Origin: an uncultured archaeon
GTDB lineage: Archaea > Asgardarchaeota > Thorarchaeia > Thorarchaeales > Thorarchaeaceae
Assembly: GCA_964610875.1 (NCBI GenBank)
Contig: CAZSWP010000036.1
Coordinates: forward strand, 1 to 37,074
Reading direction: 5' to 3'
Length of the DNA: 37,074 bases
Positions 12,670-20,299 of this stretch are shown here, one piece after another. The number at the start of each line of letters is the position of its first letter. The first letter of the stretch is position 1. Both the position numbers and the translations under genes were made by a program. The notes under the pieces were generated by a model. The model ran no database searches and had not been told where the DNA came from. It worked only from the letters and a program-made list of their open reading frames with translations.

Positions 12670-13080
12670 CTAGTCCTTTGGTGGTCTTGGTAGATCAGCG
12701 AGAGTTTCTATATCAACTACCCAAGAATTTAGCTCGTCTAAAATCTCTTCAATATATTTTTCCAATCTCTCCAAGAATCTTCGAAAATGTTCGTATTCCA
12801 ATTTCTGTTTGTCCTTCAAATCCCTGACACGTTTTGGTAACCCGATCGACCACTTCTTCAAGTTTAATTTTGCCTTTCTGTCGTCAAGAACACGTCTTGA
12901 TGTCTTTGTCTTTCTTCGCAATTCAATTAATCTTTCAGCGGTTTTTTCAAGTGATATTATTGTTACAACAAGACGTTTTGAGTCAGCCTTCTTACCCTCA
13001 TCTCGTGTTGTGTAATATATCTCTTTCAAATCACGCTTGGCCATTGCGATACGGGTCTGAAACTCTCTCAGCTCATACAT
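12670..13080 (-). CDS. Hypothetical all-helical protein
   Basis: 136 aa filling the gap; amphipathic helices, basic N-terminal two-thirds, acidic end and an LPRPP tail. Confidence 0.75.
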   Translation of the reverse strand: MYELREFQTRIAMAKRDLKEIYYTTRDEGKKADSKRLVVTIISLEKTAERLIELRRKTKTSRRVLDDRKAKLNLKKWSIGLPKRVRDLKDKQKLEYEHFRRFLERLEKYIEEILDELNSWVVDIETLADLPRPPKD

Positions 13081-13117: not shown

Positions 13118-13786
13118 CTATATTGCGGAATAGTTACACTGTCCGTTTTTTGAATAGGGACATCTTATGCATTTCTCTTTTTCAGGTGAGGCAATAGGTT
13201 TTCTATCTCTAAACCATATCTGATCCAGTCTTTCAATTGCTTTGGTTGTTTCTCGGGTATTGAATTTGTTAACATAGACTCTCCCTCTATCACAATTGAT
13301 GCATGATTTTGCGTCATTACTCTGGATACATCTTTTCGCCTCATGTTGCAAACAGTATATTGTGACTATTTTAGTCGAAGAACATGACATACCGCACTCT
13401 CTCAAAGCTAAAGCATAAAGACTAGCTTGAAAAACATCCTCTTCTCTTGCTTTATTCGGGAGATATTTTGCTGGGAATTTTCTCTCAATCATTACTTCAA
13501 GAATTGGAGATTCATCCCATCTCAAAACAGCCGCATCAAATCTTCCTAGAAATCTATATGCCATTGAATGAATGCTCTCCTCTGTAAAAAGAAAGGCTTT
13601 ACTTGATTTGGGACGGTTCCTCACTAACTTCATAAATGAGGACAAATCCCATTCAGCAATTTGAGCAGATTTCAGCCATCTAAGACGGGATAAATGAACG
13701 ATTCCCATTTCTTTTAGAAATAATAATAATAGACCAACAATGAAGAATGTGAGATATAGGAGAGATGAAAATGGCTCGATTTGCAT
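13118..13786 (-). CDS. Cas4-like PD-(D/E)xK nuclease, C-terminal portion with N-terminal TM helix
   Basis: TM (LLYLTFFIVGLLLLFL), TEE, GRFD, IERK, QASLY (QxxxY), C-terminal CIRC-x7-C. ATG at 13786 overlaps the upstream stop (TAATG). Confidence 0.85.
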   Translation of the reverse strand: MQIEPFSSLLYLTFFIVGLLLLFLKEMGIVHLSRLRWLKSAQIAEWDLSSFMKLVRNRPKSSKAFLFTEESIHSMAYRFLGRFDAAVLRWDESPILEVMIERKFPAKYLPNKAREEDVFQASLYALALRECGMSCSSTKIVTIYCLQHEAKRCIQSNDAKSCINCDRGRVYVNKFNTRETTKAIERLDQIWFRDRKPIASPEKEKCIRCPYSKNGQCNYSAI

Positions 13787-14034
13787 TATCCAAACACCCA
13801 CAATAGGATTGCCATAATACTAAGCAAGAGAAGACCCCATCTGAACAAACTGATTTTCCTAGTCGAATGATTTCTAGTTGAGATTGCATGATGTAATCTC
13901 TCTCCTTCAATTGCATATTCTGATGGCATTTCACCAAGTTTTTGTCCAAGATGAAATCTGTATTCACAGAAATATTGAATCCTTAGGTCTGACACTTCCC
14001 TATAGTGTTTGATCGACCTAGAATACTCTTTCAT
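13786..14034 (-). CDS. Cas4-like N-terminal fragment with C-terminal TM helix
   Basis: VSDL..QYFCEYRF...EGERLH matches the Cas4/AddB N-terminal motif (first Fe-S Cys and G..xH), followed by WGLLLLSIMAILLWVFG. Confidence 0.8.
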   Translation of the reverse strand: MKEYSRSIKHYREVSDLRIQYFCEYRFHLGQKLGEMPSEYAIEGERLHHAISTRNHSTRKISLFRWGLLLLSIMAILLWVFG

Positions 14035-15272: not shown

Positions 15273-15384
15273 CTTTTCATAATGACTTTAAACCAGAGAG
15301 CTTTATTAATTAGTGACGGTGGTATTGTTCTATACAATTGTAATCCTTCGTTAAGAAGCGACAAGGAATTTGATAGGTGATCAG

Positions 15385-15807
15385 ATGTCTGACAGAGAGT
15401 ATAATGGGGCAACTGCTGGAATGGTGCTTGTTTTCGATGATAGTGAAACCGTCAAGTTTCCGAGCAAGTTCAAAGATGCGATGGGGACTGATAAGGGTCT
15501 AATGGTTCTAGTGCATAAGGACCGACTCATTAAGATATTTCCACTTGAGAGCAATGATGTTAATTATCTAAGCCTTGAAATCGGAAAACTAACCAATGAC
15601 TTTTTGACAAAACTCTCTCAGATATTCAAAAAGTCGGGATTGGTTGATTTACTCTTCTCAACAGGAGTCTGTTTGCGCGGGACCAGATGTTTCTATGAAT
15701 GTTATTTCAACCCAAATCAGCTGAGTACATCATTGGATGAATTGCAGTCTTCTCTATCAGAACTTGATGGAGTAAAGCATGTCATCGTTGAAGCAGTTTC
15801 GCAATAG
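15385..15807 (+). CDS. Hypothetical protein, probable AbrB-like N-domain plus ACT-like C-domain
   Basis: DDSETVKFPSKFKDAMG resembles AbrB D..G.i.iP..iR..lg; C-half has an ACT-like pattern ending LSELDGVKHVIV. Start after SD aggtga. Confidence 0.55.
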   Translation: MSDREYNGATAGMVLVFDDSETVKFPSKFKDAMGTDKGLMVLVHKDRLIKIFPLESNDVNYLSLEIGKLTNDFLTKLSQIFKKSGLVDLLFSTGVCLRGTRCFYECYFNPNQLSTSLDELQSSLSELDGVKHVIVEAVSQ

Positions 15808-19575: not shown

Positions 19576-19798
19576 TCAGTCGTAAATAAAGAAAATAATC
19601 TTACGAAAAGCGCTTTATTCCATTGACCCATTTATAAGGAATTTTTTCCGCACACCGAGGGTTTAAAGGCAATCAACCAAATGCAAGCGTGCATGCCCTT
19701 GAAGAGGGTCGGATACACTATAGGCACTATCAATTCGAATTGTGTTTCACTACGTATTGTTTCTTTTCAGGCTTGCTAACGTTATACTAGTGATAGAA

Positions 19799-20299
19799 AT
19801 GAGTACCGAGATTGAGCCCATTGAGGCTGTAATTGCAGATTTGAAACCTAGAATGAAAGGTATCAACATAACTTTCAGATTGATATCTAAAGGAGAAAGT
19901 AGGGAAGTAACATCCCGCCGTGATAATTCAACACACACAGTGGCTGATGCAGTTGTTGGAGATCAAACAGGTTTGGTGACTATGCCATTGTGGGACGAGT
20001 CAATCGAGAACCTTGAAGAGGATAAGACCTATCGTCTTGAAAATGGGTATACTACTATTTTTAGAAACAATCTGCGATTGAACATTGGAAAATATGGTCA
20101 GATTTCCGAAGCTGAGATTCCGATTGAAGCTGAGGAGATAAATAATGAAGTTGACATGTCCCTCGAGGAACATGAAGACTATCGCCGACGTCGCAGCTAT
20201 GGTGGTAGAAGCTATGGTGGTGGCCGTGACCGCTCATATGGTAGTGGAGGTCGCCGTGATAGTAGCTATGGTGGTCGTGACAGACGCCGTCGATACTAA
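19799..20299 (+). CDS. ssb: Single OB-fold single-stranded nucleic acid binding protein (crenarchaeal SSB-like) with RG/SYGG tail
   Basis: IADLKP, VADAVVGDQTG, LWD, ENGYTTIFRNNLRLNIGKYG. Start moved to MSTE (19799). Confidence 0.88.
   Translation: MSTEIEPIEAVIADLKPRMKGINITFRLISKGESREVTSRRDNSTHTVADAVVGDQTGLVTMPLWDESIENLEEDKTYRLENGYTTIFRNNLRLNIGKYGQISEAEIPIEAEEINNEVDMSLEEHEDYRRRRSYGGRSYGGGRDRSYGSGGRRDSSYGGRDRRRRY
20195..20275 (+). repeat. Three exact 12-bp repeats agctatggtggt (SYGG) in the ssb tail
   Basis: Copies at 20195, 20210 and 20264. Confidence 0.85.

Follow-up and report, generated by a model that had tools for sequence, protein, structure and literature searches.

A conserved gene pair of Thorarchaeota that probably encodes the two parts of a membrane-anchored iron-staple nuclease

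Can a nuclease whose segments are pinned together by an iron–sulphur cluster be encoded as two separate proteins, each anchored in the membrane? The question is raised by a pair of adjoining genes (gene 1 and gene 2; Table 1) in contig CAZSWP010000036.1 of the uncultured archaeal assembly GCA_964610875.1 (Thorarchaeaceae), of which a stretch of 37,074 nucleotides, referred to here as the window, was analysed. In Cas4, AddB, Dna2 and Exo5, one N-terminal and three C-terminal cysteines bind a [4Fe-4S] cluster that acts as a staple. The original prediction for this locus held that the two genes encode a split Cas4-like nuclease and that the cluster is ligated in trans by two membrane-tethered chains. 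It is proposed here, with a probability of roughly 0.7, that the two tethered subunits form a single EXO5/Cas4-type iron-staple PD-(D/E)XK DNA nuclease at the cytoplasmic face of the membrane; this figure covers the molecular architecture and not the cellular role.

Gene 1 contains the stretch VSDLRIQYFCEY, which bears the first cluster cysteine (C23), followed by GERLH, which bears H48. Gene 2 presents, in order, E69, D84, E101-x-K103, Q120-x3-Y124, an insert with four cysteines and the C-terminal series C206-x2-C209-x7-C217. The junction between the genes reads TAATG, so that one base is common to the TAA stop of gene 1 and the ATG start of gene 2. C23, all seven cysteines of gene 2 (eight in total), H48, D84, E101, K103, Q120 and Y124 are invariant across 29 orthologues, a degree of conservation that places the motif set far beyond chance as judged from the alignment. 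The same orthologue alignment shows further invariant positions in gene 1, namely R12, V14, L17, R18, Q20, E24, G44 and L47, together with W79 in its hydrophobic helix. Translation of the two open reading frames (ORFs) recovered every element that had been listed at first reading, including the transmembrane helices, the cysteine sets and the catalytic residues, and the stop/start overlap is read directly in the DNA.

The split recurs in other genomes. Sixty Thorarchaeota loci with distinct gene 2 sequences were compared, and in 57 of them an intact, stop-terminated gene 1 lies directly upstream of gene 2; the named loci (57) all belong to Thorarchaeota-type metagenome-assembled genomes (MAGs), in which the gene 2 homologues are about 220 amino acids long. 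None of the 60 loci contains an ORF in which genes 1 and 2 are fused, the finding that would have spoken against the original prediction. A gene 2 profile search of 1.84 billion representatives likewise revealed no fused form of any length, and returned 21 orthologous clusters at E < 1e-30, all of at most 252 amino acids; in the longest of these, of 252 residues, the excess consists of a miscalled N-terminal extension only. The corresponding gene 1 profile search identified at least 125 clusters of stand-alone homologues of 70–105 amino acids, those with names being Thorarchaeota, and no longer homologues, although the latter is weak evidence. Median pairwise dN/dS (the ratio of nonsynonymous to synonymous substitution rates, for pairs with unsaturated dS) is 0.25 for gene 1 and 0.16 for gene 2, which indicates purifying selection on both genes. 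As the stop codon is conserved in 57 of the 60 loci, an assembly indel appears untenable. It had been argued from the helices at the cut that the arrangement is functional rather than decayed, and this view is upheld by the selection on both genes, by the conserved split and by the presence of hydrophobic helices flanking the cut in every orthologue.

Placement of the two proteins among known nucleases relied on profile comparisons. No Pfam or NCBIfam model matched either protein above its cut-off; the best match was TIGR00372 (cas4) on gene 2, at 20 bits against a cut-off of 65, and this model did not match gene 1. The Cas4 model PF01930 matched neither window protein and matched 4 of the 29 orthologues below threshold (E ≥ 0.015); a scan of the genome with it returned three other loci and not that of the pair. 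The Exo5 model PF09810 likewise gave no match on either window protein and nothing in the genome at E ≤ 0.01, and it matched 2 of the 29 gene 1 orthologues at E ≥ 0.054. A gene 1 profile compared with Protein Data Bank sequences yielded chance matches only. The Cas4 profiles of PADLOC do match both pieces (E 5e-7 and 1e-3), and their placement is collinear: gene 1 corresponds to profile positions 5–55 (Cas4d, E 1e-3) and gene 2 to positions 50–165.

Below the orthologues, the representative search returned a second group of matches (E ~1e-6), soluble single-chain proteins of 236–270 amino acids that exceed the Pfam cut-offs for Exo5, PDDEXK_1 or both. An alignment of these relatives, here called A3, matches human EXO5 (7LW7/7LWA) at E 1e-16 and the Cas4 protein SSO0001 only at 7e-4. 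In hhalign comparisons, gene 1 aligns to A3 columns 32–75 (probability 96.2%, E 2.3e-9) and gene 2 to columns 106–257 (probability 99.5%, E 5.8e-23), and gene 1 is in register with all four invariant residues (C, E, G and H) of the N-terminal helix of the single-chain relatives. The cysteine-rich insert occurs at the same site in the two best-scoring of these relatives, P0046 and P0048. Where the single-chain proteins have a soluble linker of about 30 residues, the pair has a short linker and a membrane helix, then the gene boundary, followed by another membrane helix and about 45 residues of gene 2. Given the collinear hhalign and PADLOC placements, genes 1 and 2 together are best described, at the level of sequence, as a single nuclease from the Cas4/EXO5 iron-staple superfamily, with gene 1 as its N-terminal and gene 2 as its C-terminal piece. 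The nearest family is EXO5-like rather than CRISPR Cas4, as judged from the Pfam Exo5 cut-off and the comparison of A3 with EXO5. The single-chain relatives themselves lie on short contigs or among unannotated neighbours.

Residues of the pair were mapped onto human EXO5 by chained alignments, from the pair to the A3 relatives and from these to EXO5. By this transitive route, C23 and H48 of gene 1 correspond to EXO5 C92 and H121, D84/E101/K103 of gene 2 to D182/E196/K198, and C206/C209/C217 to C343/C346/C352. In EXO5, residues D182 and E196 form the metal site, C343 is a cluster ligand and the mutation H121A abolishes nuclease activity; the Fe-S region links N- and C-terminal cysteines, and a crossover helix spans the path of single-stranded DNA (ssDNA) (PMC8710748). 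The chain of the pair is cut right after the crossover-helix histidine. Gene 1 would therefore contribute the cluster ligand C23 and probably also a catalytically required histidine, H48, at the start of a crossover helix that runs into the membrane anchor. As EXO5 needs the equivalent of this histidine, both chains probably contribute to the active site and not to the cluster alone.

AlphaFold2 modelled gene 2, with an alignment, at a predicted local distance difference test (pLDDT) score of 84.4. The model comprises an N-terminal helix (residues 5–26) and a three-stranded meander that bears D84 and E101/K103, and the four-cysteine insert forms two short helices between strands 139–144 and 169–174. 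The top Foldseek match is type I-C Cas4 8d3l (E 3e-4, probability 1.00), and Dna2 is matched at E 9e-3. Structural superposition with VIA-align gave the following scores: Cas4-Cas1 7mi4, Z 9.6 (root-mean-square deviation (rmsd) 4.2, 136 residues aligned); MGME1, Z 8.7 (rmsd 3.5, 116 aligned); EXO5 7lwa, Z 8.1 (rmsd 4.6, 144 aligned, 17–18% identity); and AdnAB, Z 7.3 (rmsd 3.7, 120 aligned). Cas4, MGME1 and EXO5 lie within about 1.5 Z of one another, and the fold scores do not discriminate among them. The best match in the ESM Atlas is an archaeal Exo5/PDDEXK_1 cluster (TM score 0.56).

A complex of gene 2 with gene 1 was predicted with a riding 4Fe-4S cluster and alongside three controls. The interface score ipSAE was 0.86, compared with 0.00 for the best control; the calibrated mark for this score is reached by 58 of 80 solved complexes and by 2 of 110 mismatched pairs. 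Contact agreement between runs was at least 84% and the pLDDT of the partner at least 66. The modelled interface sets gene 1 residues 9–47 against gene 2 residues 73–81, 104, 115–124, 183–191 and 197–219, and the contacts with lowest error join the QxxxY motif of gene 2 to gene 1 residues 14–21. Gene 2 residues 205, 209–211 and 216–217 contact gene 1 residues 25–26, with R26 touching C209 and residue 211. The confident interface also includes gene 1 residues 43–47 and gene 2 residues 78–81 and 104, which are adjacent to D84 and K103; the two membrane helices are not among the confident contacts of the model. The proposal that two tethered chains ligate a four-cysteine cluster in trans gains support from this docking of the gene 1 cysteine helix on the gene 2 cysteine loop and from the collinear mapping. 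A multimer model had been suggested as a means of asking whether the four cysteines converge: the soluble parts do dock, and convergence is suggested indirectly, by contacts of neighbouring residues.

Several points weigh against the reading of the pair as one nuclease in two chains. The Pfam and NCBIfam Cas4 and Exo5 models stay under their cut-offs on both proteins, and the link to EXO5 is transitive. Single-chain relatives of known structure exist for what are here the halves of a split gene, and the docking may therefore partly echo a memory of single-chain Cas4/EXO5 folds; its score indicates likeness rather than binding. The use of custom alignments and of a riding 4Fe-4S cluster departs from the calibration of the complex tool, and the approach of the four cysteines and H48 to the active site is itself deduced from contacts of the residues beside them. 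Two genera lack the pair at the syntenic position, one genome retains it only in decayed form and two others carry a disrupted copy. Finally, a Methanosarcina mazei solo-Cas4 is reported, as quoted in PMC13621843, to be active without its cluster, and the cluster may accordingly not gate catalysis.

The alternative that survives best, although it is unlikely, is that gene 2 alone is a working anchored nuclease and that the gene 1 product is a small binding regulator, chaperone or inhibitor. Gene 2 holds D/ExK, QxxxY and seven of the eight cysteines, and its fold is predicted confidently without a partner; it is intact in one genome in which gene 1 has been displaced (G206) and in another in which gene 1 has a premature stop (G290), and the activity reported for the M. 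mazei solo-Cas4 without its cluster points the same way. A merely accessory gene 1 is difficult to reconcile, however, with its alignment to an integral helix of the single-chain relatives, with the need of EXO5 for the equivalent histidine, H121, and with the constancy of the gene itself, in which C23 and H48 are invariant in 29 sequences and which is intact in 57 of 60 loci.

That the complex serves mainly as a membrane-bound Fe-S sensor of redox state or oxygen, or as a scaffold, with the nuclease fold retained, is very unlikely. The two predicted Cys4 metal sites, the membrane location and the lack of partner genes that point to a DNA pathway would all suit such a role, but the invariance of D84, E101, K103, Q120, Y124 and H48 would be unexpected if catalysis had been abandoned.

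Little probability is likewise assigned to an outward orientation, in which the pair would be an extracellular, surface-anchored nuclease that degrades environmental DNA. Bacteria possess membrane-bound extracellular nucleases, and each protein of the pair has a single terminal hydrophobic helix. In gene 1, this helix (residues 63–81, 19 residues) has a mean Kyte–Doolittle hydropathy of 2.19 and is followed by one residue; across 30 orthologues the mean is 2.74, with 0–3 residues after the helix. In gene 2, the helix (residues 6–24, 19 residues) has a mean of 2.44 and is preceded by five residues; its 30 orthologues average 2.60, with 1–7 preceding residues of net charge 0 to −2, and the 15 residues after the helix include 1–8 lysines or arginines. 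With no signal peptide and with its sole hydrophobic segment at the very end of the chain, gene 1 is expected to keep its N-terminal part inside the cell. The neutral or acidic tail of gene 2, with basic residues after the helix, is the reverse of a signal peptide and predicts an N-out/C-in orientation. Direct reading of genes 1 and 2 reveals no twin-arginine motif through which a folded Fe-S domain might be exported. The hydropathy and charge of the terminal helices thus predict a cytoplasmic location for both soluble parts, which is where Fe-S proteins would be expected. The genome encodes a homologue of Get3/ArsA, a candidate inserter of tail-anchored proteins, although the model used also matches all 14 control genomes and says little.

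Only a slight probability attaches to the idea that the ORFs are joined in translation, by programmed frameshifting or stop read-through, into a protein of about 305 amino acids with a two-helix membrane hairpin. The genes overlap or sit within a few bases of each other, a point in favour of this idea. Among the 57 intact loci, however, gene 1 ends in TGA in 52 and in TAA in 5; gene 2 is in frame +1 relative to gene 1 in 33, +2 in 23 and 0 in one; and the start of gene 2 falls anywhere from 7 nucleotides upstream to 11 nucleotides downstream of the end of the stop codon of gene 1. One recoding event, or one conserved slippery site, could not account for this range, and every gene 2 has its own ATG, GTG or TTG start at the junction. 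The sole same-frame locus (L005:3743–4660, plus strand, and L006) has its genes separated by TGA and one codon, and read-through there would yield a fused protein of 306 amino acids with a two-helix hairpin. The weakest alternative, in which a single-chain nuclease looks split because of an assembly indel or because its gene is decaying into a pseudogene, is refuted by the comparative data: single-chain relatives do exist and a few lineages have lost or damaged the pair, but the arrangement is repeated in 57 of 60 independent assemblies, whose junction sequences differ, dN/dS is 0.16–0.25, the catalytic and ligand residues are invariant and hydrophobic helices flank every cut. The conserved split, the varied frames and the purifying selection thus make assembly indel, pseudogene and single recoding event either excluded or very unlikely.

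The favoured reading, a two-chain nuclease, takes as its starting point a conserved module of two genes in which stop and start codons overlap or closely abut; in sequence, its products are collinear with the N-terminal and C-terminal parts of soluble single-chain EXO5-like proteins. It is proposed that the stop/start overlap couples translation and yields roughly equal amounts of both chains. Gene 1 would insert as a tail-anchored protein with its N terminus inside, and gene 2 as an N-out/C-in signal-anchored protein; together the two helices would resemble a two-helix hairpin cut in its outer loop, with both soluble parts facing the cytoplasm. The gene 1 helix (residues 9–47) would then dock on the QxxxY helix and the C-terminal cysteine loop of gene 2. 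Docking would complete the [4Fe-4S] site from C23 and C206/C209/C217, and would bring H48, which corresponds to EXO5 H121, to the D84/E101/K103 metal site, making both cluster and active site composite. The four-cysteine insert may bind a second metal, either Zn or Fe-S, in a structural role. The assembled enzyme would cut or resect ssDNA or DNA ends beside the membrane in a metal-dependent manner, and would form only when both proteins meet at the inner membrane face.

Table 1. Positions of the two genes and of their predicted functional elements in the window.
Feature	Position	Strand	Basis
Gene 1 (82 aa): N-terminal nuclease piece followed by C-terminal membrane anchor	13786..14034	-	ORF, translation, homologues
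Gene 1 residues 9-48: helix with first Fe-S cysteine (C23) and G-x3-H motif (H48)	13891..14010	-	Invariance, hhalign, complex model, PADLOC
Gene 1 residues 63-81: predicted tail-anchor transmembrane helix	13792..13848	-	Hydropathy
TAATG stop/start overlap of genes 1 and 2	13784..13788	-	Direct reading
Gene 2 (222 aa): N-terminal membrane anchor followed by nuclease catalytic core	13118..13786	-	ORF, AlphaFold2, fold matches
Gene 2 residues 6-24: predicted N-out/C-in signal-anchor transmembrane helix	13715..13771	-	Hydropathy, charge, AlphaFold2
Gene 2 D84...E101-x-K103: PD-(D/E)XK metal-binding and catalytic motif	13478..13537	-	Invariance, EXO5 alignment
Gene 2 Q120-x3-Y124 motif	13415..13429	-	Invariance, complex-model contacts
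Gene 2 four-cysteine insert C145-x7-C153-x8-C162-x2-C165: predicted second metal site	13292..13354	-	Invariance, AlphaFold2
Gene 2 C206-x2-C209-x7-C217: three predicted C-terminal Fe-S ligands	13136..13171	-	Invariance, EXO5 alignment

The iron-staple nucleases Cas4, EXO5, Dna2 and AddB are soluble single-chain domains in which the cluster pins N- and C-terminal segments together. The pair shares with EXO5 (PF09810; 7LW7–7LWA) the same order of motifs, from the Q..CE helix through G-x3-H, D, ExK and QxxxY to W..R.P...KC..C...C. It differs from EXO5 and the single-chain relatives in consisting of two polypeptides and in having a membrane helix on each side of the cut rather than a soluble linker; in addition, the last cysteine is spaced as C-x2-C-x7-C, compared with C-x2-C-x5-C in EXO5-like proteins, and EXO5 residue E125 is not conserved in gene 1. 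With Cas4 (PF01930/TIGR00372; SSO0001 4IC1, 8D3L, 7MI4), the pair has in common the PD-(D/E)XK core, the iron staple of one plus three cysteines and the best structural matches, and like solo-Cas4 proteins it is encoded away from cas genes. It departs from Cas4 in being split and membrane-anchored, in its additional four-cysteine insert, in the lack of cas1 or cas2 nearby and in scoring below the model thresholds. The nuclease domains of AddB/AdnB and Dna2 belong to the same superfamily and have a cysteine staple that joins N- and C-terminal segments, but they are domains of large helicase-nucleases, whereas the pair is without a helicase partner; no helicase gene adjoins it among its neighbours. 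The phylogenomic survey of Cas4 by Hudaiberdiev et al. (2017; PMC5704561) contains no mention of forms that are membrane-bound or split. Full-text literature searches returned no description of a split or membrane-anchored Cas4/EXO5-like nuclease, and the layout of the pair is apparently undescribed. One literature match to 'Cas4-like' and 'transmembrane helices' was set aside as an unrelated DUF2779 fusion in Mycoplasma.

If the proposed architecture is correct, the pair is a natural 'split enzyme' in which two anchored chains supply the cluster ligands and probably the catalytic histidine. Since the chains could be separated, mixed and mutated singly, such an enzyme would allow the functions of the cluster and of the ssDNA tunnel to be probed directly. 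Asgard archaea are the closest prokaryotic relatives of eukaryotes, and the pair would point to DNA processing at the membrane in this group by a protein family that eukaryotes also possess. Its value is limited by its occurrence in one archaeal family with no cultured, genetically tractable members.

A further and rather doubtful extension concerns the tunnel itself. The single polypeptide of EXO5 or Dna2 forms a closed tunnel round ssDNA, which admits only DNA with a free end. In the pair, the chain is cut after the crossover-helix histidine and each cut end enters the membrane, so that the tunnel might be closed only non-covalently, via the two membrane helices, as an openable clamp. Were this the case, the nuclease could assemble around DNA that has no free end, could act on DNA passing along or through the membrane (in uptake, conjugation, virus entry or segregation) and would be active only where and when both chains meet.

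Within a sample of 301 genomes of the phylum, gene 2 was found in 65 of the 76 genomes of the family to which the window belongs and, with this query, in none of the 224 genomes from elsewhere in the phylum. The pair occurs in a single Asgard family only. Nearly all loci share the order p145 (divergent), a major facilitator superfamily (MFS) transporter in some, gene 1, gene 2, a coiled-coil gene of 136 amino acids and convergent aRF1. In the window, the neighbours are aRF1, PheRS alpha and beta, an MFS transporter, a VTT-domain protein, ino1 and GNAT, and the wider neighbourhood is of a housekeeping character. PADLOC detected no defence systems in this context apart from the Cas4 profile matches, and relatives of the pair were not found on viral contigs. 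On account of its core-genome location, single copy and vertical pattern, DNA maintenance or DNA-end processing at the membrane is tentatively favoured as the cellular role. The destruction or processing of DNA that enters the cell ranks as a second and less probable choice.

The initial remark that the genes lack a CRISPR context holds: their neighbours are housekeeping genes, and the cas1 genes of the same genome, with canonical cas4, sit on other contigs. As canonical cas4 lies directly beside cas1 on two of these (C70:7267–8599 and C114:19–840), the genome has CRISPR adaptation modules with their own Cas4. The third PF01930 match of the genome is on contig C118.

Losses of the pair take several forms. 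In genera g4 and g16 (loci L041–L044), the 145-amino-acid and 136-amino-acid genes abut directly, with no nuclease pair between them, and genome G046 keeps only a decayed, frameshifted gene 1 remnant of 66 amino acids (L045:2462–2662). In G206 (genus g5), gene 2 is intact, but the position directly upstream of it, where gene 1 would be expected, is taken by a TnpB-like ORF of 460 amino acids (L032:59–1441, plus strand) with a Pfam Cas12f1-like TNB domain (E 4e-13); an insertion sequence element has apparently displaced the small subunit. In G290 (L029:1199–1459, plus strand), gene 1 is interrupted in frame by a TAA immediately following the CEYR motif and gene 2 is intact, which reflects either recent inactivation or a MAG sequencing error. 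These absences, decay and disruptions make the pair dispensable; the module is vertically inherited and selected, and behaves as a cassette that can be lost cleanly.

Some neighbours were considered as partners. The gene between gene 2 and aRF1 (window 12670–13080, minus strand) encodes a highly charged coiled-coil protein of 136 amino acids with no Pfam family; it is restricted to the same archaeal family, in which 70 of 76 genomes have it, among them genomes of two genera without the nuclease pair. It was rejected as an obligatory third subunit, since it occurs where the pair is absent and there abuts the 145-amino-acid gene. The latter (window 15370–15807, plus strand) encodes a protein with no Pfam family that is very strongly conserved across the family (tblastn E ~1e-64 to 1e-75), and it is always divergent from the nuclease module or the MFS gene. 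The upstream MFS transporter was rejected as a partner because it is found in a minority of loci only. A gene for a single-stranded DNA-binding (SSB)-like OB-fold protein lies about 6 kb from the pair (window 19742–20299, plus strand) and is also nearby in a related locus (L004:54–527); as a functional link it was rejected, being too distant and in synteny that is too generally conserved.

Genes for soluble single-chain EXO5-like proteins occur sporadically in the rest of the phylum except in one Asgard family (f27), where 10 of 11 genomes encode such a protein. Its representative in genome G123 (L124:205–1140, minus strand) has 311 amino acids and the motifs CE...G..IH, D..DYK and W..ERKP...C..C...C, and is a possible Asgard counterpart of eukaryotic EXO5.

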